A DNA stretch of 43,693 bases from Thermoleophilia bacterium (GTDB lineage: Bacteria > Actinomycetota > Thermoleophilia > Gaiellales > F1-60-MAGs149), in assembly GCA_037133215.1 (NCBI GenBank), contig JBAXOM010000002.1:1-43693 (forward strand), in the 5' to 3' direction. The notes beneath the pieces were generated by a model, which saw only the letters and a program-made list of their open reading frames with translations, was not told the origin of the DNA and searched no databases. Made by a program: the position numbers and the translations under genes. Shown piece after piece: positions 9,875 to 26,186 of the stretch (positions are counted from its first letter, which is position 1; the number at the start of each line of letters is the position of its first letter).

Positions 9875-10173
9875 CCCGCGAATTCTCCCAGTGGTCGTCG
9901 TGCCGCGAGCCGGGCGGCAGCACGGCCGAGCAGGCGAGCATCGCCAACAGGCCCGTGGAGGTATGCGTCGTCGGTTCCCGTGGAGAGCGCAACGACAAGC
10001 TCGGCTCCATCGACCGCGAGCCCAATCCCGAGAGGTGAGCGCACCGCAGCGGCCCTGGCCGAGATTGGCTCGGCCAGGATCTGGAGCGGCACGGCCTCTT
10101 CCTCGAAGGCGGCCGTAACGAGTCGGATCAGTCCCGCGTCGGCACTGGCCAGCACGACGGCCGGGGCGCTCAT
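9871..10173 (-). CDS. ddrB: Diol/glycerol dehydratase reactivase small (beta) subunit
   Basis: 100 aa. MSAPAVVLASADAGLIRLVTAAFEEEAVPLQ resembles the DdrB/PduH N-terminus (SAPAI..I......L.GIEEEGIP). ATGA overlap with the ddrA stop. Confidence 0.7.
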   Translation of the reverse strand: MSAPAVVLASADAGLIRLVTAAFEEEAVPLQILAEPISARAAAVRSPLGIGLAVDGAELVVALSTGTDDAYLHGPVGDARLLGRAAARLAARRPLGEFAG

Positions 10174-11858
10174 AGGGTCTCCGCGTGGAGCAAGACGAGC
10201 CCAACAGCGACGGCGGCCCGTGGCCCGTGTTCGCCCAAGACATCGCCGCGCGCAATGGCAAGATCGAGGTCAGCAAGTGCCAGCGACACCTCGCTGACGA
10301 TCTCGGCGTCTTCGGCACAACCGCCTACGAGGACAGCGAGCTCCCCGCGGGGAAGGCCCCCGGCAGCGGTAATCGCCCGGCGGAGATTGCCTGCGATGAT
10401 CGTCCGTTTCGCGGCTCGTCGCAGTCGGGCCCAGACTTCGGGCGCGAGGTCGGTCTCGAGAGCATCGAGGGAACCGTCTTGACGCTCCGTGATGCAGAGG
10501 TGCGCGACAGACTGTGGAGGAGCGGGGGACGTGAGAAACGTTCGGCTGCCGTCCTCGTGCCTCAGGATGAAGGGCGTCTCGACGTGCACACTTGGGTGTC
10601 GCTTCGCCTGCTCCGCACGCAGCGGATCAATGCCGAGAATCGCGCCACAGATGCGATCAACGAGAAGGCCGGCACCGGCAGTTGCGATAGCAACGTCGCG
10701 GTCATCGAGCTGGACGTGGAGGTCGACGGTACCTCCGCCCATGTCGATCACGACGGGGGCGTGGCCGGCACCTGGAGTTGTTGACGCTCCAGCCACTGCG
10801 GCTGCGGTCTCGGCGGCGACGACGACAACCTCACCCGAGAAACGCTCACCAAGGGCCTGTTCGAGCGCACGGTCGTCGCGGCGTGCGAGTACCGCGAGCC
10901 CAACGGCGCGTCGTTGACGGAGGCGTAGCGAGAGTGCCGCGTCGTCGATTGCCTCAGGGAGTGGTGCCCAAAACGCGTCAATCAGGTTGGCGTCGATTCC
11001 TTCGATCGCAACCACCTCGCCCACGCCCGGTGGTGTGGTGCTGATATCGATCGTGCGGGTCGAGCCGTCGGTCAGTGTCGCGAGGTGTGGCTGCTCTTGT
11101 TCGGTGCTGCCACCCGACGCCTGGCGGCGAACGGCGATGCCTGCACGATGGCCAAGCAATGCGCGCGCTGCATTGCGGGCACCACGCGCACGGGTGGGAT
11201 CGAGCGAGAGCAACACGGCTAGACGCAACGGATCGGCGAGCTGGACGACGGTTGCACCAAGCGGTGCCACCTCGACGGCAGCCCATGCGCCTCGCGGCAA
11301 CTCATCGGTATCGGCCACCTCATCGACGATTGGCAGCGTGGCGTCAACGCGGTTGCCGATCAACACACCGTCGTCGCCCGCCACGATGATCGCGACTAGT
11401 TGCCAGCCCTCCGCCCGTGCTGCATTGAGAGCCGCTGCGGCGGCGTCAAAGTCGATCGGCCCGACGATCGGGATCACCGGGACCGGTAACGGGTCGCCGA
11501 CGAGCTCGACTAGATCGATCAGCTGCCCAGCCGCTGCCCCGACGCCCGACGGCGTGGCGCTCACGGGGCGAGCGATGCCAACACCGCCGAGGTCCTCTTC
11601 GCTTTCGGCCGCGAGTTCGCGAAGCCCGGTCTCGACCGGATGGAGATCAGCCAGCAGAATGCGCGTTGGTGTCTCGCCGAGTCGCCGACTGGCCCGTTCG
11701 ATCAGGTCGAGCACACCCTGGGCAGACTCTGCCGTGCCTTTTGCTCCCGTCGTTGGCCCGCGCGTGACACTCAGATGCTCAGGTGGTTGCCCTGGTACGA
11801 GCCGCGCTAACGCGACCTCGGTCGTAGCGTTGCCAACATCAACACCGGCGACGAGCAC
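10170..11858 (-). CDS. ddrA: Diol/glycerol dehydratase reactivase large (alpha) subunit, ATPase of the actin/HSP70 fold
   Basis: 562 aa with GTG start. N-terminus (M)LVAGVDVGNATTEVALA matches the DdrA/PduG phosphate-1 motif. A second nucleotide motif is VVIDMGGGTVD. Positioned directly after the dehydratase subunits. Confidence 0.85.
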   Translation of the reverse strand: MLVAGVDVGNATTEVALARLVPGQPPEHLSVTRGPTTGAKGTAESAQGVLDLIERASRRLGETPTRILLADLHPVETGLRELAAESEEDLGGVGIARPVSATPSGVGAAAGQLIDLVELVGDPLPVPVIPIVGPIDFDAAAAALNAARAEGWQLVAIIVAGDDGVLIGNRVDATLPIVDEVADTDELPRGAWAAVEVAPLGATVVQLADPLRLAVLLSLDPTRARGARNAARALLGHRAGIAVRRQASGGSTEQEQPHLATLTDGSTRTIDISTTPPGVGEVVAIEGIDANLIDAFWAPLPEAIDDAALSLRLRQRRAVGLAVLARRDDRALEQALGERFSGEVVVVAAETAAAVAGASTTPGAGHAPVVIDMGGGTVDLHVQLDDRDVAIATAGAGLLVDRICGAILGIDPLRAEQAKRHPSVHVETPFILRHEDGSRTFLTSPAPPQSVAHLCITERQDGSLDALETDLAPEVWARLRRAAKRTIIAGNLRRAITAAGGLPRGELAVLVGGCAEDAEIVSEVSLALADLDLAIARGDVLGEHGPRAAVAVGLVLLHAETL

Positions 11859-11859
11859 G

Positions 11860-12258
11860 TCAGCTGATCAGCCCACGACGGGTGTAGTGCGCGATTGCCT
11901 CGTGTACGAGCGCTGCGCAGCGCACGCCACCACCAGCCTCGAGTTCGGCAGCGATGGTTTGGAGCTCGGCCACCGATGAACGGCCGGGACGCAGAGCGTC
12001 GTAGAACCGGAGCACGTCATCGTCGGAAAACAGAGCGAGTTCGGCACCGCGACGGAGATTGTCGGCCAACTGTGGATTGCCACCCTGCTCGGCAAACTCG
12101 GCCTGGCGACGCAACGTGTCGGGGTCGACCGCCGCGTCGGCAGAGGTAATCGTGCCGGCGCGGATATCAGCGACGGTCAATTCGTCGGCAGCCTTTCCGG
12201 TCTGCGACCGAACGTCGGCGCGGTTGTGTTCTCCAAGGGGATATTTCAACTCGGCCAT
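11860..12258 (-). CDS. pduE: B12-dependent diol/glycerol dehydratase small (gamma) subunit
   Basis: 132 aa. MAELKYPLGEH...LTVADIRAGTITSADAAVDPDTLRRQAEFAEQGGNPQLADNLRRGAEL is typical of the dehydratase small-subunit family. Overlaps the large-subunit gene by 13 nt. Confidence 0.85.
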   Translation of the reverse strand: MAELKYPLGEHNRADVRSQTGKAADELTVADIRAGTITSADAAVDPDTLRRQAEFAEQGGNPQLADNLRRGAELALFSDDDVLRFYDALRPGRSSVAELQTIAAELEAGGGVRCAALVHEAIAHYTRRGLIS

Positions 12259-14495
12259 GTGACCTCAATCTCCTGCGGAGTCCCTGCGCGCAGACACTGG
12301 CTCTCGCGGTTGATCAGCGCTACCACCTTGGCGTGATACCGCGGACCCATCGGCTCCCCCGACTCGGGCAGCAACACCGGGGAGGGCTTCTCGCCGCGCG
12401 CGTGACGCGCGGCATTGCGGCCCATCAGGCGGTAGCGCGATGCGTCGATCAACGGCGCCATGCTCAGCAGTTCGAGATTGGCAAGGGTTGGGAGGTCCGC
12501 GCGGTGGATCAACGCCGTTCCCTTCCCCTGAATGCCAAGCGCAACGCCGCTCCCCGACAGGTTCGCTGCGGTCCAGCCGATCATGCCGAGGTCGAGCGAG
12601 TGGGTGACGCGCACGACACGGGCGTGCACACCTTCCTCCTCGATCCCAGCCAGGATCTGGCGCAACGCCTCGCCCACCGTCAAGCCGGAGAGCGTAAGCC
12701 AGACATCAACGCCAAACGCGGGGGAGATGCCAATGACAACCTCGTCTGGGCGGGGCCGCACGGCCGCTGGGCCGGTCTCGGTCAGGACGACACATCCAGC
12801 GTGAGGCGCCTGCTCTGCGAGCAACTCCACGTGCGAACGCTCCTGTCGGACGCGGGCCATTTCCTCGAGGCGAGCGGAAGACGGGCGATAGCCGGTGCCG
12901 GGACCTGCGTAGTCGTTGGGGTCCGTGAGTGCACTCAACACGCTCATGTCCTCAGCGAAGATCGCCGAGGTTTGGAGGTGGTCGCCAAACAGGCGTTGGC
13001 GGGTCATCTCGAGCACACGCTCAGCCTCGAGTTCGAAGCCACGGATCGACAGCGCGCGCACGACATCGACCGCGGTGATCTCGCGCTCGATAATTGCGTC
13101 GCCGGCACGGGCCGTCTCATCGGTCTGGTGCTCCGACACGTCGAGGCTGCCATGGGCCGTTACCACCCGCTCGAGCTCGGCATCGTCGAACGTCATTAGA
13201 TCGAGTTCATCGAGCACCGCCCGACAGGCCTCGGCGGCGCGACGCCGTAGCGGCAAGAGGGTGTCGTCGCCTTGCGACCGCAACACACCCTCAAAGCCCC
13301 AATCGCGTTGGACCATCATGTAGTCATCGATGTCTTCGGCGTTGAAGTTCGAGGCGCCAAAGGTGTTGTCGTAGCTCGGGATCGAGCCAAAGCCGCTGAA
13401 AAGAAAGTCCGAGCCGGCAAGCAGCAACGGCAGCGTGTGCGCGGTGCGACGGATGTCCGATGCGCTCATCTGCGTGTCGTTGCCCGTGCACGACTCGAGG
13501 CCGTAGAGCGTTGCCATGACATTCTCGGCCAGGATCTCACGCATGCCGTTTGGCACAGATCCCGTGACATTGATGCCGTCGATGCCGCCGTTCTGCGTTC
13601 CCTGTGAGCCCGCCGCACGGGTGATCGCGACACAGCGCGCCTCGAGGTAGAGCATTGATTTACCCTCCGCGGCACCCATCAAAACTTCGGCGCCCGAGCC
13701 GGAGGTGAAGCGCATCTTGAGTCCGCGAGAGGCATAGGAGGACGCCAAGAGCGCCTTCGACCACGGGGTGTCGTCGCCATCGAGAAAGACCTGCTCGGTG
13801 CCGTAGACAGAGACCGTCTCGGCGTAGGTCGTCAGACCGCGCATGCCTAGTTCGAGTTCGGTCTTCTCCTCGACGGAGCACTGCGTCAGCGCGCCTGGAG
13901 CAGGTACCTGACTACCGATGAGGAGTGCAAGGGCGACGAGTGGGGCGTCGCGCAGCACGGGGACCGTTGTCTCCAGCTCGCGGAAGCCGAGCGCCACGGC
14001 ACTCGCCGCGTCGGCGGCAATCAGGAGCGGGTGGTCGATGCGATTGGTGACGTGCGCTTGGATCGAGGGCGTACGTCGTGCCCGCATCTTGGCCATCGCC
14101 TGCATCAACTCGAGCGGACTGAGCAGACTAAGAATGCGTGCGACCTTGGCGGGCGTCATGCCCTCGACGAGGCGCAGGATCTCCGTACGGGGTACGTCGT
14201 GTCCACAGAGCATGCGCGCGAACGTGATGTCATCGAGCGCCATCGCCTCCTCGGCGACAGTCGGGTCGATCCCGTGCGCAGCGAGGAATGCGTCGATCAG
14301 GTCAAAATCGGCCTCTGATCGACCGTCGATCTCGACGATCCGTCCGTCCTCAACACGAATCGACGGGTCGGGATCGTTGGGACTATCGAAGGCGATCAGG
14401 CCAAGCTCGGGATACTCCGGCACGACGACGTCGCGACTGATCGCGCGCGTTTCGAAAAACGCGCTGCGTCGAGACGTTCCCTCAGCCGGCTCCAT
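12246..14495 (-). CDS. pduCD: B12-dependent diol/glycerol dehydratase, fused large (alpha) and medium (beta) subunits
   Basis: 749 aa. Residues 1 to about 560 are collinear with PddA/PduC: SPNDPDPSIRV, MRARRTPSIQAHVTN, LTQCSVEE, VYGTEQVF.DGDDTPWSKALLASSYASRGLKMRFTSGSG, MLYLEARC. After a roughly 35-aa linker, the C-terminal part of about 190 aa matches the beta subunit core: VVIGISPAFG, LAGIEEEGV.ARVVRV, SGSGVALGIQGKGTALIH, NLELLSMAP. Confidence 0.9.
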   Translation of the reverse strand: MEPAEGTSRRSAFFETRAISRDVVVPEYPELGLIAFDSPNDPDPSIRVEDGRIVEIDGRSEADFDLIDAFLAAHGIDPTVAEEAMALDDITFARMLCGHDVPRTEILRLVEGMTPAKVARILSLLSPLELMQAMAKMRARRTPSIQAHVTNRIDHPLLIAADAASAVALGFRELETTVPVLRDAPLVALALLIGSQVPAPGALTQCSVEEKTELELGMRGLTTYAETVSVYGTEQVFLDGDDTPWSKALLASSYASRGLKMRFTSGSGAEVLMGAAEGKSMLYLEARCVAITRAAGSQGTQNGGIDGINVTGSVPNGMREILAENVMATLYGLESCTGNDTQMSASDIRRTAHTLPLLLAGSDFLFSGFGSIPSYDNTFGASNFNAEDIDDYMMVQRDWGFEGVLRSQGDDTLLPLRRRAAEACRAVLDELDLMTFDDAELERVVTAHGSLDVSEHQTDETARAGDAIIEREITAVDVVRALSIRGFELEAERVLEMTRQRLFGDHLQTSAIFAEDMSVLSALTDPNDYAGPGTGYRPSSARLEEMARVRQERSHVELLAEQAPHAGCVVLTETGPAAVRPRPDEVVIGISPAFGVDVWLTLSGLTVGEALRQILAGIEEEGVHARVVRVTHSLDLGMIGWTAANLSGSGVALGIQGKGTALIHRADLPTLANLELLSMAPLIDASRYRLMGRNAARHARGEKPSPVLLPESGEPMGPRYHAKVVALINRESQCLRAGTPQEIEVTWPS

Positions 14496-14583: not shown

Positions 14584-15540
14584 ATGACAGGGATCCGTCA
14601 AGGCGTCGCCCCCTCGACCATGCTGGCCGTGGTGGGCGATTCGGCGAGCGGCAAGACTACGCTGACGCGTGGTCTGGCACGCGTGCTTGGTGAGGAGCAG
14701 GTTGCCCATGTTCCGAGCGACGACTACCATCGCTACGACCGTGCTCAGCGCAAGGTGATGGGCATCACGCCGCTCAATCCCGAGGCCAACTATCTCGACA
14801 TCATGGCGCGCGATCTCGAGACGCTCTCGACGCAGCGCGCGATCCTCAAGCCCACCTATCGCCATACCGACGGCACGCTCGGTCCGCCTCAATACCTTCA
14901 GCCGAGTCCCTACACGGTGGTCGACGGATTGTTGTGCCTCCAGACCGAGGAGTTGCGGCGACGCTTTGACTGCACCGTCTACATGGACCCACCAGAGGAA
15001 ATCCGACGAGCCTGGAAATTGCTTCGTGACACCACGCGACGCGGCTACACGACGGACGAGGTGCTTGACGAGATGGATCATCGCGAGCGCGACTCGGTCA
15101 AATGGGTACGACCGCAGCGCGCGTTTGCAGACCTTGTGATCACGTTTCGTCACGGCAGCCGTCCCGAGGAGAAGAACCTCGACGCAGAGATTCTGCTGCG
15201 ACCAACGTTGCCGCATCCCGATCTCTCCGGTCTTGGCGGCGAGGGACCTGACGATCTCACGATTACGAAAATGCCGCATGGCGAGCAGTTGTTGAACGTA
15301 CCGGGCATCCTGCCGCCGGGACGTGCACAGGAGATCGAAGAGGCAATTTGGGATCGCCTGCATTTCGCTCGCCATCTCCAGCTCGACCGACTCGGGCAAT
15401 TTACACGCGGCATGGATCTGTATCGATCCGATGCGCTGGCCATCACCCAGCTCCTCGTGCTGTACCAGTTGGTGACCGCGCGGGCGACCCGTGCGCTCGA
15501 CGTCGCCGGCGCACCAACGCGCCACGGCGAGGTCGACTAG
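14584..15540 (+). CDS. prk: Phosphoribulokinase (class II, cyanobacterial/plant-like PRK/uridine-kinase fold)
   Basis: 318 aa from MTGIRQG (alternative ATG at 14620). P-loop VVGDSASGKTTL. DDYHRYDRAQRKVMGITPLNPEANYLD, LKPTYRHTDGTLGPP, VVDGLL, VYMDPPEEIRRAWKLLRD..RGYT and VRPQRAFADLVI are collinear with class II PRK as I recall it. The ORF-track start at 13918 is antisense read-through of pduCD. Confidence 0.78.
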   Translation: MTGIRQGVAPSTMLAVVGDSASGKTTLTRGLARVLGEEQVAHVPSDDYHRYDRAQRKVMGITPLNPEANYLDIMARDLETLSTQRAILKPTYRHTDGTLGPPQYLQPSPYTVVDGLLCLQTEELRRRFDCTVYMDPPEEIRRAWKLLRDTTRRGYTTDEVLDEMDHRERDSVKWVRPQRAFADLVITFRHGSRPEEKNLDAEILLRPTLPHPDLSGLGGEGPDDLTITKMPHGEQLLNVPGILPPGRAQEIEEAIWDRLHFARHLQLDRLGQFTRGMDLYRSDALAITQLLVLYQLVTARATRALDVAGAPTRHGEVD

Positions 15541-16565
15541 CTCTCTGCGGCGACGCTGCCTCGGCGATCGACGCCGACGATGGTGGCAAAAAGTATGCCG
15601 AGGACAATGGGCGGTAGGAACGTCAAGGCGCGCTCGAGTAGCACGCCCGCCACGACCGCCGTGTGATCACCGCCGAACGCGACCAGCAGCCCCGTCATGC
15701 CGAGCTCGACGAAGCCGATACCGCCGGGGGTGATCGGAATCATCAGAAGCAGACGCGTCAGCGACCAGGCGACGAGAATCTCCTGCCACGAGAGTTGCGC
15801 AGAGTCTGCACCGCAGACGCGAAGTGCAACGACCACGCACGCGAAGACAGCGATGTTCGACGCCAGCGTGGCGGCGAGCAGTCCGAGCCAGCGCTGTCGG
15901 AGCACGACAATCGCCTCGGCTCGGAATTCGACGACGTGCTGTCCCCAATCGCCTGCTGGGCCTCTGCGTAGTACACGCAAAAGCGGGGAGGCCAAACGGG
16001 CTGCTGTGGTACCGGCGCTGCGTGCAGCACCAGCGTCGCGGATCGACCGAACCACCACGCCCGCGATCACGATGAGCACCATAAGTGCGGCGACCGCGAT
16101 GACAAACAGCCCCGTTCGCCGCTCGCCGTCGAACTGGAGCAGGACGAGGCTGAGCGGTGGGAGGACGACAAAGAAGACCGCATTTGCCGCTCCGACAAGG
16201 GTCAGGGCAACCGCGATTGGTTGCGGGCCAAAACCCCAGCGTCGATACAACGCAACCTGTGCGCCCATCCCAAGCGCATCACCCGCGGGCACGGCATGCG
16301 AGAAGGCAGCAGAGATTTGTGACGAGCTCAACGCGCGCCAGAAGCCCAAGCCGGGGAGAGCGGCTTGGAGTGGTGGTGCGAACGTGATGACGTTGAGAAC
16401 CGCAAGCCCAACGAGTACGACGACCTCGATCGTTGTCAACTGGCGAAACTGATCGATGACGCTGCGATAGCTTGCCACCTCCGGCAGGACAACCAAGAAT
16501 GTCCCGGCCACAATGGCGACACCAAGCACGCCAATAATCACGTGGGTCGGCTTGATCCGTGCCAT
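15537..16565 (-). CDS. Polytopic membrane protein, UPF0104 / lysylphosphatidylglycerol-synthase-TM (flippase-like) family
   Basis: About 342 aa from MARIKPTHVIIGVLGVAIV. Multiple hydrophobic helices with a Gly/Ala/Leu-rich pattern typical of this family. I reject the longer ORF-track start (16664) because it overlaps the tRNA gene. Confidence 0.65.
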   Translation of the reverse strand: MARIKPTHVIIGVLGVAIVAGTFLVVLPEVASYRSVIDQFRQLTTIEVVVLVGLAVLNVITFAPPLQAALPGLGFWRALSSSQISAAFSHAVPAGDALGMGAQVALYRRWGFGPQPIAVALTLVGAANAVFFVVLPPLSLVLLQFDGERRTGLFVIAVAALMVLIVIAGVVVRSIRDAGAARSAGTTAARLASPLLRVLRRGPAGDWGQHVVEFRAEAIVVLRQRWLGLLAATLASNIAVFACVVVALRVCGADSAQLSWQEILVAWSLTRLLLMIPITPGGIGFVELGMTGLLVAFGGDHTAVVAGVLLERALTFLPPIVLGILFATIVGVDRRGSVAAES

Positions 16566-16607
16566 GGCGACAGCGTACGGTGTTGGGCGCGTATTCTCTG
16601 CGGGTGA

Positions 16608-16679
16608 AGGGGCGTAGCTCAGCGGTAGAGCACCCGGCTCATAACCGGTCAGGCCCTGGTTCAAATCCAGGCGCCCCTA
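16608..16679 (+). tRNA. tRNA with CAT anticodon (elongator tRNA-Met, or tRNA-Ile2 if lysidine-modified)
   Basis: 72-nt cloverleaf read by hand. Acceptor AGGGGCG/CGCCCCT, D arm GCTC-AGCGGTA-GAGC, anticodon arm CCCGG-CTCATAA-CCGGT, variable CAGGC, T arm CCTGG-TTCAAAT-CCAGG, discriminator A. CCA is not encoded. Confidence 0.85.
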
Positions 16680-16700
16680 TAAAAACGATAAGGAGTAAGC

Positions 16701-18041
16701 GTGATGACAATGAGTCGCCGGACCTTCCTTGCCGGCGCATTGTTGGTGTCGGTGGCGGGGACTGGCGGAATGTCTGCACGTGCTGCACCGAGAACGACGA
16801 GTAAGCCCACGCGCGGTCTCGTTACGCGCTGGGACACAGATCCGTGGTCGTTGGGCTCGTACTCTGCCTTGCCCGTTGGCTCTTCGCCGGCCGTGCGTGA
16901 GACTCTCGCAGCAGCGGTGATCGCTGGTGGTGTTGTGCTAGCGGGTGAACACGTCAGCACGGTCCACGCAGCGACCGTGCAAGGGGCATATCTGTCGGGC
17001 CAACATGCAGCAACTCTGTTGATCAACCGGGGAGTGGCTCGTGCCTCGAAGACCGTGATCGTGATTGGCGCCGGAGTGGCTGGCCTCGCAGCAGCGCAGG
17101 CGTTGCAAGCCGCCGGGGCCACGGTGGTGGTGCTCGAGGCTCGCGATCGCATTGGTGGCCGTGTCTGCACCGATACCTCATGGGGCGTCCCAATCGAGCT
17201 TGGTGCCGCCTGGGTGCACGGGGTCAAACGAAACCCAATTACGACTCTGGTTCGCAGCGGTGGCTCGACGCTCGTGCCGACGAACTACAACGACGATGAC
17301 GTGCGCGCGCTGGACGGCAAGACTCCGAAGGACCTCTTCTCGCATTCAACAGCACTCGATCGGCTGGTGGCGAAGATGGAGGCGCGGCCGTACCCCGTCG
17401 ACGACTCCGTCGGAGACGTCCTGGCAGCCGCGGGGTGGCGTCCTAGCGTGCTCAACAACTGGATCGTGGAGACGACGCTGACGCATGAGTATGGGGTTGG
17501 CCCGTCGATACTTGGGGCTGAGGCGTTATATGAAGGCCAGGACCAATTCGGTGGGGATGCCTTCGTCAAGGGTGGTTATGACGTAGTGCCGAAGCAACTC
17601 GCCGCGGGAGTGAGCATTCGACTCTCCTCGCCGGCGAGTTTCGTGAACACCGCCAAGGGGTTGTCCGTGACACTTCGCTCGGGTGAGCGGGTGGTCGCTG
17701 ATGGCGTCGTCGTTGCCGTCCCGCTCAGCATCCTGCAGCGTCGATCGCTGCAAATTGAGGGCATGCCGACGCGCGTGCGTTCTGCCCTCGATGGCCTGCG
17801 CATGGGGTCGCTCGAGAAGGTGATCCTGCAGTACGCCGATCGGTGGTGGCCACGGTCGCAGGCCTACGGCATCGTTGGCAGCCCTGGCCGTCGCTGGGCC
17901 GAGTGGTACGACCTCACGGATCTCGTTGGAGAGCCGACGTTGGTCGGTTTTAGCGCGGCGACAGCAGCCGCAGGGCGGTCCCGGTCGGACGCGTCCTGCA
18001 TCGCCGAGGCCGCGGATCTGTTCGCCACTGCGTTCGGGTAG
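16701..18041 (+). CDS. Tat-exported flavin-containing amine oxidase with apparent circular permutation
   Basis: 446 aa with AGGAG RBS at 16691-16695. Twin-arginine signal MMTMSRRTFLAGALLVSVAGTGGMSARA. Next comes LVTRWDTDPWSLGSYSALP...LAGEHVS...VQGAYLSG, which is normally the extreme C-terminus. Then the N-terminal FAD fold KTVIVIGAGVAGLAAAQALQAAGATVVVLEARDRIGGR. The protein ends at ...LFATAFG. Confidence 0.8.
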   Translation: MMTMSRRTFLAGALLVSVAGTGGMSARAAPRTTSKPTRGLVTRWDTDPWSLGSYSALPVGSSPAVRETLAAAVIAGGVVLAGEHVSTVHAATVQGAYLSGQHAATLLINRGVARASKTVIVIGAGVAGLAAAQALQAAGATVVVLEARDRIGGRVCTDTSWGVPIELGAAWVHGVKRNPITTLVRSGGSTLVPTNYNDDDVRALDGKTPKDLFSHSTALDRLVAKMEARPYPVDDSVGDVLAAAGWRPSVLNNWIVETTLTHEYGVGPSILGAEALYEGQDQFGGDAFVKGGYDVVPKQLAAGVSIRLSSPASFVNTAKGLSVTLRSGERVVADGVVVAVPLSILQRRSLQIEGMPTRVRSALDGLRMGSLEKVILQYADRWWPRSQAYGIVGSPGRRWAEWYDLTDLVGEPTLVGFSAATAAAGRSRSDASCIAEAADLFATAFG

Positions 18042-18077
18042 GGCCAGGTGTCACTGCCCTGATTCGGTGGCTCCGAG

Positions 18078-19337
18078 CTAGTGCGTTGCCGCCGCCGGAG
18101 CTGGTAACGAAGAATCGAGTAGGCTGGCCGCGCGCTGACCGCTGCGGATGGCGCCCTCCATGAAGCCCGACCAGACGTCATCGGTAAACTCGCCGGCCAA
18201 GACAAGCCGTCCATGCCGTTGGCGCAGAAGTTCGTCGTTTGGTCGGTCGCCCGGGCGCACGTGCGTATAGATGCCCTGCGCGTACGGGTCGTCGTGCCAG
18301 GTTTGTGTGCCAGCCGCGTCGAAGTCGAGCGCAAGGTCAGGGCGTACTTCGGCCACGCTGCGCGCCCAGGTGGTGCCATCGTGCTCGACCTCGAGGAGGT
18401 CCAGCATCGGCTGCGAACCCATGAAACCCGCGAGGACAGGACGGAGCCCTTCGGTCCCCTGATTGGCCGTCCAGACCCAGTAGTCGTGTCGAGTATCGAG
18501 AACGGCACTCGGCTCCGCAGGCCCGAGTAAGGGGACAAAGAGCTTGGCTGCGTGTGAGACACCAAAAGTGCTCGCGGCGGCCAGTACAGCGGCGGGTAGG
18601 AGTGCAGCAAACGGGTCTTGCACCAGAATCGGTTTGGGTAGTGCCAGGACGATCTGAGCGGCGCGGTGAGTTTCCTTCGTGGTCTGCACCGAAACGCCGT
18701 CTTCGTCAATCGTGATGTCCAGTACAGGTTCGCTGAGGCGGACGCGATCTCCGAGAATCGCGGCCAGTGCGCGGGTTGGAGCGTCACTACCGGTCCCGAT
18801 CCGTGGCGAGTCGACCTGCTCGGGTGCCGAGGCGAGATGGAGGAGGTGCCAGGCAGCCAATTCTGTTGCCGGAGCACCACTCGTGCACTCGATGCGGGCA
18901 CGAAACGCGATCTTGACGCCCTCCGGTTGGTCGAGTCGCTCGATCGCGTCAGCGACGGAGATGTCGTACGCCTCGTCACCGAGCGCGGCGAAGAGTGCGC
19001 GCAATGCGGCGCGACCAGCAGCCAATTCATCGTCGCTGACAGGTGGACCCCCAACCGGTCGACGGTCGTGGTAGCTCATGCCGGTACGCGCAAGCGGGAT
19101 TCCGAGACGATCGCAGAGGGCGACCATCTCGACCTGAACATCTTCGACCCACTCTGCGCCACGCTCGATAATCGTGCCGTCGGGCAGATGGTCGGTCCAA
19201 GCACGACCACCGACGCGATCCCGTGCCTCAAGGACGGTGATGTCCCAACCGGCATTCGCGAGAGCCTCGGCGGCGATCAGGCCAGAGAAGCCGGCGCCGA
19301 CGATGATGGCAGAAGAGGTGTCCATGACTTGCACCAT
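18078..19337 (-). CDS. Flavin-containing amine oxidase, canonical topology, no signal peptide
   Basis: 419 aa. N-terminal IIVGAGFSGLIAAEALANAGWDITVLEARDRVGGR. C-terminal TWHDDPYAQGIYTH...LVLAGEFT...FMEGAIRSGQRAA. Start could be 19325 (MDTSS). Confidence 0.85.
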   Translation of the reverse strand: MVQVMDTSSAIIVGAGFSGLIAAEALANAGWDITVLEARDRVGGRAWTDHLPDGTIIERGAEWVEDVQVEMVALCDRLGIPLARTGMSYHDRRPVGGPPVSDDELAAGRAALRALFAALGDEAYDISVADAIERLDQPEGVKIAFRARIECTSGAPATELAAWHLLHLASAPEQVDSPRIGTGSDAPTRALAAILGDRVRLSEPVLDITIDEDGVSVQTTKETHRAAQIVLALPKPILVQDPFAALLPAAVLAAASTFGVSHAAKLFVPLLGPAEPSAVLDTRHDYWVWTANQGTEGLRPVLAGFMGSQPMLDLLEVEHDGTTWARSVAEVRPDLALDFDAAGTQTWHDDPYAQGIYTHVRPGDRPNDELLRQRHGRLVLAGEFTDDVWSGFMEGAIRSGQRAASLLDSSLPAPAAATH

Positions 19338-19430
19338 ATCCGGATCGTACGTTTCGGTGCAATGCGCTCAGGGAGCGCTGACTGATGGGCCAGCGCCTGT
19401 CCTCGTTCGAGAGCGTCCGCCTAGTTGGTC

Positions 19431-20831
19431 TCAGGCTTCGATTTCGGCAAAATCAGGATGCTCGGGAGCGTGTCCCCAGGTCTCGAGTTCGACCGGTGGA
19501 GTCAGGCCCGATGTCACCCATTCCTGAGCGCGTGAACGCACGTGCGCCCGGAGAACCTCGAGATCCGCGAGTCCGTCTTTCGGAACCTTGCCTGTGTCTG
19601 CGACCGCCTCTGTGATCTCTAATTCGAGGAAGTAGGCAAGTTCACGGGTATTGATGATGTCGTCACTGACCGCGACAAATGGGAGTGCGTCCTCAGGTTC
19701 AAATTCGACCGTCTCTGCCGCCCGGAGCCAGCCGTAGTCGAAATTCATATTCAGGAGTGGGCGGGACGTCTCGAGAACTCCAACGGGGCTCAGCGTGGGA
19801 TGAATCACCGTCATGGTGAAATTCTCGCGCGGCTGCTCGAGTGCACTGCGACGCGAGCTGTCCATTGCGGTAATCGCTGCGACACGACCCAAGACATTGA
19901 GAAAGCCATGCTCGGCAGCCTGCCACTCAATCGGACTCGGATCGAGCGGAGAGGCAGCGATCGCGATCACGTTCGTGGCACCGGCTCGACGCGCAGGGAT
20001 GACCGGAAGGTTGCGGATGGCGCCGCCGTCGACGTAATAGTCGTCTCCAATTTGGCGCGGCTCAAAAATCACCGGAATCGACGCCGAGGCGAGTGTTCCC
20101 TCAATCACGCCCGGATGGCCAGCTCCCTCAATGACCGTGTCCTCGTAGTTATCGATGATAACGCCGGACTCGGTGACAAGTCGCGTCGTGCCCGCCCGCA
20201 GTGCCGTGACTGGCATACGCAAGGCGATACCAGAGGTTCTAACTGCCTCTTCGTCGATGGCTTTAAAGGCTCCATCGACGATGCCGCGAAGGGCGTTCTC
20301 GAGCGGATCCATGACCATGAATGAGAGGGGGAGTGAGCGCATGTTCTGAATGAGATGCAGCGAGTGAAGAGGATGCGCGGCAATACTCGTCATCACCCGC
20401 ATCGCAGAAATATCATCAGTCTTCTTCCTCCCGTGCTGACCGAGTGCGGAATGCCGTGGTGGACGAGTTGCCGTCTGCGTCGCGAGCAGGGATTCGATGA
20501 GCTTGCCGAGCCGCGTATCGTCGTATTCGGCGAGCCACGGTGCCTTCGTGAAGATTTCGGTTGGATCGGCGACATCCAGCATCGACTGGCGAACCTCTTG
20601 GACGAGACGAGCGAGGTCCTCGGGGGTATGCGCCTGAGCGAGCTGAACGGCCAAGATGGCGCCCATTGAGGTTCCGCTCAGCACGCGCGGCTTAAAGTGA
20701 TACTTCGTGGTCAGGTAGGCCATCGCACCGACTTCAAACGAGCCCTTGGCGCCTCCGCCGGAGAGCACGATCGAGACGTCGTCGGTCGTCATCGGGTGTC
20801 GGTCACGGCGGTTGTTATGGGCGTATGTCAT
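19431..20831 (-). CDS. Patatin-like phospholipase domain protein with a C-terminal extension of about 130 aa
   Basis: 466 aa. Oxyanion LSGGGAKGSFEVG, nucleophile GTSMG, catalytic Asp YYVDGGAIRN. Confidence 0.85.
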   Translation of the reverse strand: MTYAHNNRRDRHPMTTDDVSIVLSGGGAKGSFEVGAMAYLTTKYHFKPRVLSGTSMGAILAVQLAQAHTPEDLARLVQEVRQSMLDVADPTEIFTKAPWLAEYDDTRLGKLIESLLATQTATRPPRHSALGQHGRKKTDDISAMRVMTSIAAHPLHSLHLIQNMRSLPLSFMVMDPLENALRGIVDGAFKAIDEEAVRTSGIALRMPVTALRAGTTRLVTESGVIIDNYEDTVIEGAGHPGVIEGTLASASIPVIFEPRQIGDDYYVDGGAIRNLPVIPARRAGATNVIAIAASPLDPSPIEWQAAEHGFLNVLGRVAAITAMDSSRRSALEQPRENFTMTVIHPTLSPVGVLETSRPLLNMNFDYGWLRAAETVEFEPEDALPFVAVSDDIINTRELAYFLELEITEAVADTGKVPKDGLADLEVLRAHVRSRAQEWVTSGLTPPVELETWGHAPEHPDFAEIEA

Positions 20832-20962: not shown

Positions 20963-21307
20963 ATGGAGAAACCGTCCACGATTGAGTACGACGCCTTCTC
21001 GGCGGTCGATATGCGCATCGGCGTCGTGGTTGAGGTGCGTGCCTTTCCAGAAGCACGCAAACCGGCGTGGCAAATTTGCGTCGACTTTGGTTCTGAGTTC
21101 GGTAGGCGCTGGACGAGTGCACAGGTGACGAACTACAACGAGCATGAGCTTGTTGGGCGTCGAGTTGTCGGCGTCATCAATCTCGGCACGCGACGCATTG
21201 CGGGATTCGAGAGCGAATTTCTCTTGCTTGGAGCCGTCCAACCGGATGGCAGCGTCGTGTTGCTCGACGTCGACCCGAGCGCAGAACTTGGCTCTCCTAT
21301 CGCCTAA
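20963..21307 (+). CDS. tRNA-binding domain protein (CsaA/YgjH, EMAP-II-like OB fold)
   Basis: 114 aa from MEKPSTIEYDAFSAVDMRIGVV..V..FPEARKPAWQICVDFG...QVTNYNEHELVGRRVVGVINLG.RRIAGFESEFLLLG. Confidence 0.8.
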   Translation: MEKPSTIEYDAFSAVDMRIGVVVEVRAFPEARKPAWQICVDFGSEFGRRWTSAQVTNYNEHELVGRRVVGVINLGTRRIAGFESEFLLLGAVQPDGSVVLLDVDPSAELGSPIA

Positions 21308-21894
21308 CGGCTGAGGAGATAGACGGCGCCTGCGGCAAGCAGGTTGGCAGCGCGCTGCGTGACGGAACCCTCGCGGGCACCACCTTCGTTAAGCAAAATT
21401 CGCTCCTCGACGGTGAAGCCCTCGGCTTGCGCTAAAGCCTCAAAGTCCTTGATCGAGCAGAGACGAATATTCGGGGTCTCGTACCAGGTGTAAGGCAGCA
21501 ACGGCGAAACAGGCATGCGGCCACTCGCAGCGAGCTGAGTACGTAGGCGCCAATGGGCAAAGTTAGGGAACGAGATGATGCTCTTGCGCCCCACGCGATT
21601 CATCTCGCGCAGCACCAGTGCGGGGTGGTGGACAGCCTGGAGCGTCAACGACATGATCACGATGTCGAACGAATCGTCTTCGAGGTCGTCGAGGCCCTTG
21701 TCGATGTCGTCCTGCAGCACCGGTACGCCGCGCTGAAGGCAGGCGAGAACGCCGTCGTCCGAGATCTCGACACCGAGTCCATCGGCGCCACGTCGAATCA
21801 ATTCCTCGAGCAGCGAACCATCGCCGCAGCCGAGGTCGAGGACGCGTGAGCCAACGGGCACCAGCGATGCAATGACGTCATGGTCGGCGCGCAT
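21304..21894 (-). CDS. metW: Methionine biosynthesis protein MetW (methyltransferase-fold partner of MetX)
   Basis: 197 codons from MRADHDVIASLVPVGSRVLDLGCGDGSLL. ATG overlaps the metX stop (TGATG). The ORF-track start at 22074 lies inside metX. Confidence 0.85.
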   Translation of the reverse strand: MRADHDVIASLVPVGSRVLDLGCGDGSLLEELIRRGADGLGVEISDDGVLACLQRGVPVLQDDIDKGLDDLEDDSFDIVIMSLTLQAVHHPALVLREMNRVGRKSIISFPNFAHWRLRTQLAASGRMPVSPLLPYTWYETPNIRLCSIKDFEALAQAEGFTVEERILLNEGGAREGSVTQRAANLLAAGAVYLLSR

Positions 21895-23048
21895 CAGTGG
21901 GTCTCCTCGAGCGCGCGGTCGAGATACGCAGCCACGGTCTTGTGGTACTCCGGTACCTCGAGCAGGAACGAGTCGTGGCCGTGAGGAGACGAGATCTCGC
22001 GAAAGGTGACCGGCACGCGGTGCGCCGTCAGGGTGCGCACAATCCCGCGGGAATGCGACGTGTCGAAGCGCCAATCGGTGTCGAACGAGAGCACGAGGAA
22101 CTTCGTCTTGACCTTGGCCAGTTGTGACCGCACGAGCTCGGCGTCGGCGAACAGGTCGAAGTAGTCCATCACCCGCGTCAGATAGAGGTACGAATTCGCA
22201 TCGAAGCGGTCGAGGAACACCTTGCCCTGATGCTGGAGATACGACTCGACCTGAAAGTCGACACCGAGATCGAAGCGTGGCTCTTCGCGATCCTGGATAC
22301 GGCGACCGAACTTCTGCCGCATCGACTCTTCTGAGAGGTAGGTGATGTGCGCCATCATGCGCGCCACGGAGAGGCCATGGTCAGGTCCCTTGCCGTTGGC
22401 GTAGTAGTTGCCATCTGCAAAATCGGGGTCGTTCATGATCGCGGCGCGGGCGACAGCGCTAAAGGCGATGTTCTGCGCCGAAAGGCGAGCCGTGGCGCAG
22501 ACGACGATGCCGTGTTCGACCTCGTCGGGGTAGTCGAGCGCCCACTGCAACACCTGCATGCCACCGAGCGAGCCACCAACGGCAGCCAAGACGTGAGTGA
22601 TCCCGAGGTGTGCCAGCAGCGCGCGCTGGACCTTGACGAGATCGGAGACCGTAAAGAGTGGGAACTCGAGGCCGTAGGGCTTACCCGTTGCGGGGTTCAC
22701 ACTCGATGGCCCCGTCGTTCCCTGACAGCCTCCGAGCAGGTTCGAACTGACGACGAAGAGGCGATCGGTATCGACTGGCTTGCCCGGGCCGATCAGCGTG
22801 TCCCACCAGCCCGGGTGCGTCGGGTCGCCGTGGTGGCCGGCCGCGTTGGCGTCTCCCGTTAGGGCATGGCAGATCACGACGACGTTATCGTCGCTCGCCG
22901 TTCGCTCGCCATACGTCTCGTACGCCACCTCGACGGGCGCGAGGGTCTCGCCCGAGTCGAGCACCAGCGGGTTGTCCTCCGTAAAGAGGACAACCCGCTG
23001 CGTCTCAACGAGTCCGAGGGAGCGTGCTGGTGTGCCGCTCGCTCCCAT
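21894..23048 (-). CDS. metX: Homoserine O-acetyltransferase
   Basis: 384 aa. Alpha/beta fold with GGSLGGMQ nucleophile elbow, VVICHALTGD, and the C-terminal SPHGHDSFLLE motif. Confidence 0.92.
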   Translation of the reverse strand: MGASGTPARSLGLVETQRVVLFTEDNPLVLDSGETLAPVEVAYETYGERTASDDNVVVICHALTGDANAAGHHGDPTHPGWWDTLIGPGKPVDTDRLFVVSSNLLGGCQGTTGPSSVNPATGKPYGLEFPLFTVSDLVKVQRALLAHLGITHVLAAVGGSLGGMQVLQWALDYPDEVEHGIVVCATARLSAQNIAFSAVARAAIMNDPDFADGNYYANGKGPDHGLSVARMMAHITYLSEESMRQKFGRRIQDREEPRFDLGVDFQVESYLQHQGKVFLDRFDANSYLYLTRVMDYFDLFADAELVRSQLAKVKTKFLVLSFDTDWRFDTSHSRGIVRTLTAHRVPVTFREISSPHGHDSFLLEVPEYHKTVAAYLDRALEETH

Positions 23049-23053
23049 CGGGG

Positions 23054-24346
23054 TTACGCCGTGGCCTTCGCGAGCGCCTGATCAATGTCCGCGAGGATGT
23101 CACTGATGTTCTCAATGCCAACCGAAAGGCGAACCGTGTCCTGCCCAACGCCTGCTGCATCGAGTTCCTCGTCGTTGAGCTGAGAGTGCGTCGTCGAGGC
23201 GTTGTGAATTGCCAACGATCGCGCATCGCCGATGTTGGCGAGGTGCGTAAACAGATCGAGGCTCTCGATGAAGGTCTTGCCAGCCTCGCGGCCACCCTCA
23301 ATCCCGAAGGTCACGATGCCACCAAAGCCGACGCCCGTGTTGAGGACGCGCTTGGCGGTCTCGTGGTACTTGTCGTCCTCGAGGCCCGAGTAGTTGACCC
23401 AGTTGACGCCAGCATGGTTCTTGAGGTGCTTGGCAACGGCGAGCGCGTTCTCGCAATGACGCTCCATCCGCAGGGCCAAGGTCTCGAGGCCCTGCAGGAT
23501 CAGGAAGGCGTTGAACGGCGAGAGTGCGGCGCCGGTATTGCGGAGCAACACGGTGCGGACGCGGCCAATAAACGCTGCTGGTCCGAGGGCGTCCGACCAG
23601 ACCACGCCGTGGTACGACGGGTCGGGCTTCGTCAATCCGGGAAAGCGCTCGGCATTGGCAACCCAATCGAACTTGCCCGAGTCGACGACGACGCCGGCGA
23701 TCGTGGTGCCGTGACCACCCATGTACTTCGTGGCCGAATGGACAGCAATGTCGGCACCGTGCTCGAAGATCTGCGTCAGCATCGGCGTGGCGACGGTGTT
23801 GTCGACGATCAGCGGGAGACCCTGAGCGTGCGCGGCGTCGGCCCAGGCCTTGATGTCGACGACGTTGAGGCGCGGGTTGCCGATCGTCTCGGCGAAGACC
23901 AGGCGAGTCTTGTCGTCGGTCAATTCGGCGACCTTCTCGGGCGAATCGGGGTCGATAAAGCGAACCTCGATGCCGTACTGCGGCAACGTGTGGGCGAACA
24001 GGTTGTAGGTACCGCCGTAGAGCGTGGAGACGCTGATGATGTTGTCTCCGGCACGGGCGATGTTCAGGACCGCGTAGGTGACGGCGGCCTGGCCGGACGC
24101 GGTCGCGCAGGCCGCGATGCCACCCTCAAGCGCGGCGACGCGCTGCTCGAGCACGTCCCACGTCGGGTTCATGATGCGGGTGTAGATGTTGCCCGGCACG
24201 GCCAGCGCGAACAAGTCGGCAGCGTGCTGGGTGTCGTTGAACTCGTAGCTGGTCGTCTGGTAGATCGGAACGGCCACGGCCTTCGTCGTGGGGTCCGGGC
24301 TCTGGCCTGCGTGGAGGGCCAGTGTTGCGGGGTGGTGCTTGCTCAT
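23054..24346 (-). CDS. metY: O-acetylhomoserine sulfhydrylase (aminocarboxypropyltransferase), PLP-dependent
   Basis: 430 aa. [41 protein letters not shown] (PLP Lys), [19 protein letters not shown]. Confidence 0.92.
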
Positions 24347-24444: not shown

Positions 24445-24570
24445 CTCACCATCTTCCGCTTTTCCGTCGGGACTTACCGGAATCGCGCTGGATGAAGCAC
24501 CTGTCGGACAGTCGTCCCGGTTGCTGCCGCGTCAAAAGGCCAGATCCCTCGGCGGCTCGTGATGGATTGC
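24445..24570 (-). promoter_or_regulatory. SAM-I (S-box) riboswitch in the metY-metX-metW leader
   Basis: Minus-strand RNA: CCAUCACGAG-CCGCC-GAGGGA-UCUGGCC-UUUUGAC-GCGG-CAGCAACC-...-GGUGCUUCAUCCAGCGCG-...-GGAAGAUGG. It carries the conserved GAGGGA, UGGCC, CAGCAACC and GGUGC..A.UCC blocks, and a P1 helix CCAUC/GAUGG. Lies about 100 nt upstream of the metY ATG (RBS AAGGAG at 24356-24361). Confidence 0.78.
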
Positions 24571-24577
24571 AAGCAGC

Positions 24578-24605
24578 AGATTAGCATTCGGAGCGAGAAC
24601 GTCAA
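24578..24605 (-). promoter_or_regulatory. Candidate sigma-A-type promoter for the riboswitch-metYXW transcript
   Basis: On the minus strand: TTGACG (24605-24600), 16-nt spacer, TAATCT (24583-24578). This places a start site a few nt before the riboswitch P1 helix. Confidence 0.5.
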
Positions 24606-24718
24606 GTTTTGAGTGGGCCACAGACTGTCGACGACACGAAAGACCTGTTTAGCGTACGATGACTAGGCGGGCGTTCGGCCAGAACGCTTACAACGACGTA
24701 TTTGATGAGGTGAATGGC

Positions 24719-25603
24719 ATGTCCGAGCAAGGCACAATGGGCGTCAAGAGCGGTTTGGCCGAGATGCTGAAGGGCGGCGTCATTATGGACGTCGTCAATG
24801 CCGAACAGGCCAAAATCGCCGAGGATGCTGGTGCTTGTGCCGTTATGGCACTCGAACGCGTGCCCGCCGATATTCGTGCCGATGGTGGTGTCGCGCGCAT
24901 GTCCGATCCCGAGATGATCGTCGGGATTCAGGAGGCCGTCTCGATTCCCGTGATGGCGAAGGCGCGCATTGGCCACTTCGTCGAAGCGCAGATCCTGCAG
25001 TCGCTGGAAGTGGACTACATCGACGAGTCCGAGGTTTTGACGCCTGCGGACGAGGCACATCACATCGACAAGAACAAATTCACGATTCCGTTCGTCTGCG
25101 GAGCCACCAATCTCGGCGAGGCGCTGCGGCGCATCGGTGAGGGTGCCGCGATGATCCGCTCGAAGGGTGAAGCCGGCACCGGCGACGTCGTCGAGGCGGT
25201 CCGCCATATTCGGGGTATCCTCGGCGAGATTAAGCGCCTGCACGGCATGGACCCTGATGAAGTCTACGCCCGCGCAAAAGAACTCCAGGCGCCACTCGAT
25301 TTGGTCCAGTTTTGCGCCCGCGAGGGTCGTCTTCCTGTCGTGCTCTTCACCGCCGGTGGCGTTGCAACGCCTGCCGATTGCGCTCTGATGATGCAGCTCG
25401 GTGCCGACGGTGTCTTCGTCGGGTCCGGCATCTTCAAGAGTGGCGATCCTGCCAAGCGCGCCCGTGCATGTGTCGAGGCGACGACGCACTTCCGCGACCC
25501 CGCCAAGTTGGCCGAGGTCTCTAAGAATCTCGGCGAGGCCATGGTCGGTCGTAGCGCCAAGTCGATTCCTGAGGACGAGCTGTTCGCCGGACGTGGCTGG
25601 TAA
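24719..25603 (+). CDS. pdxS: Pyridoxal 5'-phosphate synthase, lyase subunit
   Basis: From [54 protein letters not shown] near-invariant PdxS sequence throughout. Confidence 0.95.
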
Positions 25604-26186
25604 CACCCCGCGCGTTGGTGTGCTCGCCCTGCAAGGGGCGTTCCGCGAGCACGTGCAGGCGCTCGAGCGGCTGGGCGCAACGGCAATTGAGGTGCGAACG
25701 CCGGCGGAGTTAGAGGGCCTTGATGGTCTGATGCTGCCGGGAGGCGAGTCGACCACGATGGATCTCCTGCTCGACTCGTCGGGTCTACGCGAGCCAATCA
25801 GCGCTGTGATTGCCGATGGACTGCCGGTCTTCGGTACCTGTGCGGGATTAATCCTGCTCGCGACCGACCTTGAGGACGGCACGAAGGACCAGCGAACGCT
25901 GCGTGCGCTCGACGTGACAGCGCTCCGCAATGGCTACGGACGGCAGGTCGCCTCATTCGAGGCCGCCGTCGAATTGGCGGGAGATCAGACAACGATGGTC
26001 GGAATCTTCATTCGAGCGCCGCGCATCACACGCGTCGGCGAAGGCGTCGAGGTGCTCGCCTCTGTCGGTGATGAGCCCGTCGCTGTCCGCAGCGGCTCTA
26101 TCATGGCGGCAACGTTCCATCCGGAGCTGGCGCACGACGACCGGCTCCACGCGCGCTTTCTTGAGCGCGTGACCACGCATTCGTAG
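25593..26186 (+). CDS. pdxT: Pyridoxal 5'-phosphate synthase, glutaminase subunit
   Basis: In-frame GTG at 25593 (overlaps the pdxS end by 11 nt) gives (M)[37 protein letters not shown] and FHPEL motifs. Alternative GTG at 25620. Confidence 0.9.

Follow-up and report, generated by a model that had tools for sequence, protein, structure and literature searches.

The flavin amine oxidase fold, known from MAO, PAO, LSD1/2 and the L-amino-acid oxidases, is among the most studied of flavoenzyme folds. Its canonical domain for binding flavin adenine dinucleotide (FAD) is made up of three non-contiguous segments of the chain, and the last ~75 residues close the cofactor site. Enzymes of the PAO/LSD type, here maize PAO (1B37), human LSD2/KDM1B (4GU0, 7XE3), LSD1, spermine oxidase and yeast Fms1, follow the order N-module, middle region, C-module. 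In this work, we have examined an open reading frame (ORF) at 16701..18041 (stop codon included) on the forward strand of a 43,693-nucleotide stretch from a Thermoleophilia bacterium (GenBank assembly GCA_037133215.1, contig JBAXOM010000002.1), referred to below as the window. Taken together, the ORF list, Pfam and alignment to PDB chains indicate a 446-residue precursor with a GTG start, in which the order is C-module, N-module, middle. We put at about 0.88 the probability that this is a functional, naturally circularly permuted flavin amine oxidase of the PAO/LSD-like branch, exported by twin-arginine translocation (Tat) and carrying an old, inherited layout.

The PAO/LSD enzymes provide the best matches to the ORF product in both sequence (E 7e-37, to LSD2) and fold (E 1e-21), and they share with it the FAD motifs (GxGxxG, E, RxGGR and AGE...SG) and the active-site lysine. 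In addition to its segment order, the product differs from them in having a Tat-type leader and in being free of SWIRM, zinc-finger and tower additions. Canonical bacterial relatives bearing a pair of arginines in the leader are found in the Mycobacteriaceae (loci L012 and L017), Pseudomonadales (L019), Chloroflexota (L020 and L030) and cyanobacteria (L055 and L063), and presumably belong to the same enzyme class and cellular location. Canonical relatives of this kind are 33-40% identical over their full length to the product when its segments are put back in canonical order; many have a twin-arginine leader and some a lipobox, but, unlike in the ORF product, the leader is followed by the Rossmann strand, and the module containing W-DP-GSY and AGE is C-terminal. 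The NicA2/Pnao-type flavin 'amine oxidases' of Pseudomonas are reportedly of MAO-family fold and canonical order and exported by Tat to the periplasm, and exported members are said to be able to donate electrons to cytochrome c in place of O2. A gene for a cytochrome partner was not seen beside the ORF, and this likeness serves as a lead only.

Natural circular permutation is itself well-known from the DNA methyltransferase classes, swaposin and transaldolase, and is usually accounted for by duplication, fusion and trimming at both ends, with the fold retained. These cases represent the same kind of event in different fold families. Thus, both the phenomenon and the enzyme superfamily are known, but a permuted flavin amine oxidase is apparently undescribed: full-text literature searches found no account of one. 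An earlier reading of this DNA, the initial annotation, had been aware of no permuted members of the family, which agrees with these searches; in the sequence databases the layout is widespread.

Evidence for the exchange of segments comes from the Pfam model PF01593 (Amino_oxidase), against which the ORF product scores 195 bits (cut-off 19.8; E 3.7e-57) in three separate stretches. When the pieces are scanned singly, residues 34-107 correspond to positions 370-442 of the 443 in this hidden Markov model (HMM), with an E value of 1.3e-16, residues 126-213 to positions 1-91 and residues 332-392 to positions 246-301; NAD_binding_8 is also matched in the N-module (E 1.5e-15). The collinear order N-module, middle, C-module is therefore not that of this protein, in which the C-module comes first, then the N-module, then the middle. 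A sequence search that returned 110 PDB relatives at E<=1e-3 gives the same picture, because in the alignment with human LSD2 (4gu0) residues 116-422 run along positions 336-671 of the chain, whereas residues 34-105 fall at 701-771. The second FAD-binding segment (the strand-AGE...G..SG helix) lies at residues 78-109, N-terminal instead of C-terminal.

The canonical order was also restored in silico. An un-permuted sequence of 417 residues was composed of residues 116-446 followed by 30-115, with the junction between its positions 331 and 332, and was compared by BLASTP with canonical relatives recovered from genome contigs. It aligns as a single high-scoring segment pair (HSP) from 1 to 409 of 417 that spans the junction, with E values of 5e-70 to the Mycobacteriaceae protein of L012 and 7e-67 to a Pseudomonadales protein, whereas the native order yields two HSPs, swapped. 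In a multiple alignment with the canonical relatives, the C terminus (...DLFATAFG) and the N terminus that follows the signal (SKPTRGLVTRWDTDPW) adjoin, and the gap between them, of 0-2 residues, falls in the loop between the last helix of the middle region and the strand that re-enters the FAD domain. The chain thus ends at the point where canonical enzymes go on into the W..DP..GSY segment. Each canonical segment is found exactly once, neither the C-module nor the N-module recurring elsewhere in the chain, and the alignments indicate that two contiguous segments have been exchanged and none lost or duplicated: a clean circular permutation. The initial annotation had claimed that the N-terminal residues are the canonical C-terminal segment, that the N-terminal FAD fold comes second, that the chain stops where W-DP-GSY would follow and that this is a clean permutation, not a truncation; the model positions, the junction gap and the single collinear HSP substantiate each of these points.

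The layout can be followed along the forward strand. The first 28 residues (16701..16784) form a twin-arginine, Tat-type signal peptide, recognized by motif reading, by the conservation of R6, R7 and L10 and by low model confidence, and consisting of SRRTFLAG, a hydrophobic core and a cleavage-type site ARA/A. The relocated C-module, residues 34-109 (16800..17027), is defined by the Pfam HMM, the LSD2 alignment, invariant residues, high model confidence and its codon pattern. It comprises a strand (TRW), the stretch W44-D45-P48...G52-Y54-S55, a strand VLAGE (A81-G82-E83) and a long helix at 93-109 (G95...S99-G100), and corresponds to the final ~75 residues of canonical enzymes, by which the FAD domain is closed. 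A new linker of 8 residues, RGVARASK (residues 110-117; 17028..17051), delimited by predicted secondary structure and by the spacing of the SG and GxGxxG motifs in relatives, bridges the old C-terminal helix and the old N-terminal beta strand. The Rossmann beta-alpha-beta dinucleotide-binding unit follows at residues 118-160 (17052..17180), a position that is N-terminal in canonical enzymes; it is supported by the Pfam HMM, NAD_binding_8 and invariant residues, and carries G123-A-G125-V-A-G128 (G-A-G-x-x-G), E146 and R150-I-G152-G153-R154 (RxGGR). The rest of the FAD domain and the substrate-binding domain make up residues 161-446 (17181..18038), as judged from the LSD2 alignment, the Pfam HMM and the junction alignment, and the protein terminates (...AEAADLFATAFG) with the helix after which canonical enzymes continue into the C-module. 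Within this last region, the codon of K373 (17817..17819) lies in a motif, GSLEKVIL, that by conservation and by alignment with GIIEKIAL of LSD2 holds the active-site lysine of the family.

Direct reading of the sequence places a Shine-Dalgarno-like AAGGAG at 16690..16695 on the same strand, and there are three in-frame start candidates downstream of it, GTG at 16701, ATG at 16704 and ATG at 16710, at spacings of 5, 8 and 14 nt. The public gene call on this contig (P0271) begins at the last of these and gives 443 aa, which is why an exact database look-up of the 446-aa product found no match. Of the ORF first proposed, a 446-aa frame with a ribosome-binding site, a box resembling a ribosome-binding site is indeed present, but the start may instead be at 16704 or 16710. 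The choice among the three is without effect on the permutation finding.

A start much further downstream, near 17040, would have quite different consequences: the 110 codons upstream of it would be untranslated or decaying, and the protein would be a C-terminally truncated oxidase or a pseudogene. Several homologues have in fact been called too short by automated annotation, at 361-383 aa, with starts inside the C-module (P0018-20, P0028, P0030 and P0037). However, comparison with the 68%-identical orthologue of locus L081 reveals a divergence of 0.58 at third and 0.10 at second codon positions within the C-module, against 0.58 and 0.15 in the rest of the gene, and 40% of the C-module codons carry a silent change with the amino acid kept. 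The similarity of the two patterns indicates that the C-module is translated and that purifying selection acts on it. In 62 sequences its FAD-contact residues do not vary, it is packed into the predicted fold with high confidence, a protein deprived of it would miss an essential FAD-binding element, and the ribosome-binding site stands at 16690-16695 instead. The codon-position divergence and the invariant residues leave a start near 17040 highly improbable, and the short homologue calls reveal rather that gene callers and annotators mishandle the permuted architecture.

The permuted order is not confined to this contig. In all 120 of the best database matches (440-515 aa, 43-89% identity at ~100% coverage), the AGE module comes ahead of the GxGxxG motif, and in contigs taken from one genome per species the C-module lies immediately upstream of the N-module in 26 of 80 loci. 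They come from Actinomycetota metagenome-assembled genomes (MAGs) of the Nanopelagicales, Ilumatobacteraceae, Nitriliruptoraceae and Acidimicrobiia, the cultured Cryobacterium cheniae, C. breve and Cryobacterium sp. Y11, the Alphaproteobacteria Nitratireductor sp. XY-223, Hoeflea, Devosiaceae, Sphingomonadaceae and Cohaesibacteraceae, and one Verrucomicrobiota MAG. An exhaustive HMMER search over 1.84 billion representatives at 50% identity identified, among the best 150, 62 permuted, 84 canonical and 4 partial proteins. Orthologues thus share the exchange, and these comparisons characterize the permuted layout as the conserved architecture of a large cross-phylum family, not a peculiarity of ORF 16701..18041. 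Database labels for the family are generic ('FAD-dependent oxidoreductase', 'monoamine oxidase' and 'polyamine oxidase').

This distribution also bears on the reality of the arrangement. Mis-joined tandem copies can in principle yield apparent permutations, and a collapsed tandem duplication or a chimeric join in the contig would mimic what is observed here. Yet the same order occurs in more than 150 independently assembled proteins, including those of the isolates Cryobacterium and Nitratireductor, the gene recurs at syntenic loci in relatives, and neither direct repeats of note nor any duplication signature were found in 15500-20000. With independent assemblies and isolate genomes in agreement, an assembly artefact is barely conceivable.

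Residue conservation was measured over 62 family members. G123/G125/G128, E146 and G152-G153-R154 are invariant, as are W44-D45, G52, Y54-S55, A81-G82-E83, G95 and S99-G100 of the C-module. Conservation is at least 90% at both E372 and K373, and K373 aligns with the lysine of the LSD2 'IEK' motif; we take it to be the counterpart of LSD1 K661 and maize PAO K300, the lysine bonded to flavin N5 via water. Given the conserved FAD and lysine motifs, the protein looks like a working FAD enzyme.

An AlphaFold2 model built from the 62-sequence alignment predicts, with confidence, a single amine-oxidase fold (mean predicted local distance difference test score (pLDDT) 92.7, predicted template-modelling score 0.90). 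Values under 50 are limited to residues 1-26, in the signal; residues 30-115, the moved module, lie at 92-98 and the region of the linker (101-120) at 93-98, with secondary structure consisting of a helix at 93-109, the 8-residue linker and a strand at 118-122 (beta1 of the Rossmann unit). The best Foldseek matches in the PDB are LSD2 (E 1.3e-21), LSD1 and maize PAO. The query-normalized template-modelling score (TMq) reaches a plateau at ~0.65 and never exceeds 0.66, and all of the best stretches begin at query residue 104 or beyond; such a plateau is to be expected of a sequential aligner, for which ~105 of the 446 residues, those of the signal and the moved module, cannot be placed in order. 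In neither the sequence nor the fold searches of the PDB was a chain aligned over the full length, and no solved structure therefore has the permuted order.

The leader merits separate consideration. The sequence S5-R-R-T-F-L-A-G, a hydrophobic core (ALLVSVAGTGG) and A26-R-A28/A29 are present, in agreement with the twin-arginine signal read by the initial annotation, and in the 62 homologues R6, R7 and L10 are at least 90% conserved against an otherwise variable leader. A full leader is available for 141 permuted homologues, of which 129 have the arginine pair and 45 a lipobox-like motif; the leader of this protein has no lipobox. It could be supposed that the permutation is real but the leader not of Tat type, being a Sec signal, a membrane anchor or part of a cytoplasmic protein, since Pfam and NCBIfam scans reported no match to Tat-signal HMMs and the motif ends in A-G, not in the consensus K. 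Against this, S-R-R-x-F-L fits the core of the Tat consensus, the arginine pair persists despite the variability around it, canonical relatives have similar leaders, and cofactor-binding proteins are a typical class of Tat substrate. We consider a non-Tat leader improbable. Many canonical relatives carry a twin-arginine leader directly ahead of the Rossmann strand, and others (Microbacterium and Agromyces) have none; the signal is, by this comparison, not special to the permuted form, and on the simplest reading the permutation arose in an ancestor that was already exported.

From these features, a course of events can be suggested for an enzyme whose order is twin-arginine signal, C-module, 8-residue linker, Rossmann unit and middle, with the chain stopping at the loop that enters the canonical C-segment. 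The precursor would fold and bind FAD in the cytoplasm and then be exported via the Tat pathway; the signal would be cut after ARA28, and a mature enzyme of ~418 aa would be active outside the membrane, where approximately one-third of its relatives appear to be anchored as lipoproteins instead. There it would oxidize the C-N bond of an amine, most likely a polyamine-like one, by hydride transfer to FAD, and the flavin would be reoxidized by O2, yielding H2O2, or by another acceptor. The layout itself would date from an old ancestor shared by a large family and would not have been acquired locally. An extracytoplasmic amine (polyamine-like) oxidase or dehydrogenase is our best inference as to function; the characterized enzymes nearest to it are polyamine and lysine-amine oxidases.

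Protoporphyrinogen oxidases, phytoene desaturases and similar enzymes likewise fall under PF01593, so that a permuted, exported enzyme acting on a non-amine substrate has to be considered. Weak N-terminal matches to the NCBIfam models for HpnE, protoporphyrinogen oxidase and CrtI, the heterogeneous neighbourhoods of family members and the lack of conservation at the aromatic-cage position could all be taken in its favor. The active-site lysine specific to the family is nonetheless kept, the best sequence and fold matches are LSD2, LSD1, spermine oxidase, maize PAO and Fms1, and one relative is followed by a class-III aminotransferase, another being near GCV_T and a second amine oxidase. A non-amine substrate thus appears unlikely.

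A number of points weigh against the reading of the ORF as a permuted, Tat-exported amine oxidase. The enzyme role of the whole family is deduced from sequence and model, and the fold equivalence of the moved module likewise from sequence homology and high pLDDT. The position aligned by eye with Y761 of the LSD1 aromatic cage is H89, which is variable in the family. Neither Pfam nor NCBIfam has a dedicated model for the permuted family, and to this may be added the silence of the Tat-signal HMMs mentioned above. Gene neighbourhood, which was tried as a guide to function, is heterogeneous and gave no consistent clue to the substrate.

To ask how often the permutation has arisen, the main actinobacterial, the minor actinobacterial and the alphaproteobacterial/verrucomicrobial permuted proteins were compared. 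In all of the permuted groups examined, the break point lies in the same loop and a twin-arginine leader is common to them; the distance from SG to GxGxxG is 18-23 aa in every group, with a single exception among the permuted proteins measured. Because the break point and linker are common to the groups, a single ancient permutation event is the more economical account, and one we regard as probable from these comparisons. Phylogenetic support for monophyly was sought and not obtained: neighbour-joining on the un-permuted alignment recovered a split between permuted and canonical proteins in 0 of 200 bootstraps, no shared diagnostic residues were found among the permuted groups, and HMM cross-scores among these groups are no higher than those to canonical groups, which they in fact favor. 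Nor was monophyly rejected. When an unconstrained neighbour-joining tree of 194 sequences was compared by least-squares length (minimum evolution) with a topology constrained to permuted monophyly, the constrained tree was 0.02% longer and was favored by 49% of bootstrap replicates. One origin and several origins are, on the present alignments, inseparable.

The converse proposal, that the permutation arose more than once, with the same surface loop cut each time and always in enzymes with a twin-arginine signal, is doubtful, as the identical break points and linker lengths count against it. The main actinobacterial clade, a second actinobacterial group and the alphaproteobacterial/verrucomicrobial clade are possible candidates for separate origins. 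If true, repeated origin would mean that selection ties this topology to how extracytoplasmic amine oxidases fold, are loaded with FAD or are exported by Tat. No evolutionary intermediates, either proteins with a C-module at both ends (C-module, N-module, middle, C-module) or tandem fusions, were found among 270 proteins.

The existence of a large natural family with the closing segment at the front suggests that the canonical topology is not required for function. It provides a natural template for new termini in protein engineering, and a clean system for studying the influence of segment order on FAD insertion and on Tat quality control. Annotation of the Pfam type splits the permuted proteins into partial domain matches, and would be improved by a dedicated family model. 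Permuted enzymes occur commonly in Actinomycetota MAGs from freshwater and soil, and may take part in extracellular amine or polyamine turnover.

The immediate neighbours of the ORF include a second oxidase. The gene at 18078..19337 on the reverse strand, convergent with the first, encodes 419 aa with no signal peptide, and its residues 17-405 match positions 1-440 of PF01593 in one collinear stretch, which agrees with its initial description as canonical. Both proteins belong to PF01593, but they differ in segment order and export and are only distantly related (two short HSPs), and the neighbour is therefore not the source of the permutation; local origin from it was rejected on this ground and on that of the age of the layout. 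The convergent pair is kept in L001 and L081-L084, down to 62% identity, a hint that the exported oxidase and the cytoplasmic one are paired in function. In the window, as in relatives at 62-68% identity, the permuted gene forms part of a synteny block with a B12 diol-dehydratase cluster, a PRK-family kinase and tRNA-Met upstream and, downstream, the convergent canonical cytoplasmic amine oxidase followed by metW-metX-metY. Comparison of neighbourhoods revealed no conserved operon partner beyond the canonical oxidase of the query's own lineage.

On the upstream side, a tRNA-Met gene (anticodon CAT) lies at 16608..16679 on the forward strand (ARAGORN; Rfam RF00005, 69 bits) and ends 21 nt before the oxidase ORF begins. 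The same tRNA is directly upstream in relatives (L081, 7900-7973; L001, 2084-2157). A sigma-70-like hexamer pair is present at 16472-16500, and because it stands upstream of the tRNA the oxidase may be co-transcribed with tRNA-Met. No intrinsic terminator pattern was found in 16300-18300, including the 36 nt between the convergent stops. Integration or rearrangement linked to this tRNA was also considered, and set aside because the tRNA-gene arrangement is syntenic in relatives and no island features were seen.

Among more distant members of the family, the neighbours are mixed (SDR, glyoxalase, dioxygenase-like, UbiH-like, TetR, CBAH and Aminotran_3). In relatives of the Nanopelagicales type (L085, 3969-6389; L086, 5001-7798), a CBAH (Ntn-hydrolase) gene in the same orientation ends 13 nt upstream of the permuted oxidase; in one relative the oxidase is followed by a class-III aminotransferase, and another lies near GCV_T and a second amine oxidase. 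The CBAH and aminotransferase neighbours are possible clues to a role in amide/amine catabolism.

Two genes close to the oxidase pair distinguish the window from the otherwise syntenic L081-L084. An LPG_synthase_TM-family membrane protein gene (15537-16664, reverse strand) is absent from them, as is a patatin-like phospholipase gene (19431-20831, reverse strand), in whose place they have a small gene with a tRNA_bind domain; both differences reflect genes gained or lost locally next to the oxidase pair. Beyond the phospholipase gene is an operon consisting of MetW (21304-22074), a MetX-like hydrolase (21894-23048) and a metY-like pyridoxal phosphate enzyme (23054-24346). A 442-aa ORF at 24602-25930 (reverse strand) has coding-like GC content at third codon positions and no Pfam match at E<=1e-4. 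Immediately upstream of the metY-like operon is an S-adenosylmethionine riboswitch (RF00162, 50.5 bits; 24446-24568, reverse strand). On the other side of the oxidase pair, the B12-type diol/glycerol dehydratase cluster (10170-14495, reverse strand) has its large and medium subunits fused into a single protein of 749 aa (12246-14495), with the small subunit at 11860-12258 and the reactivase at 10170-11858, and the same subunit fusion is present in the syntenic L081-L084.

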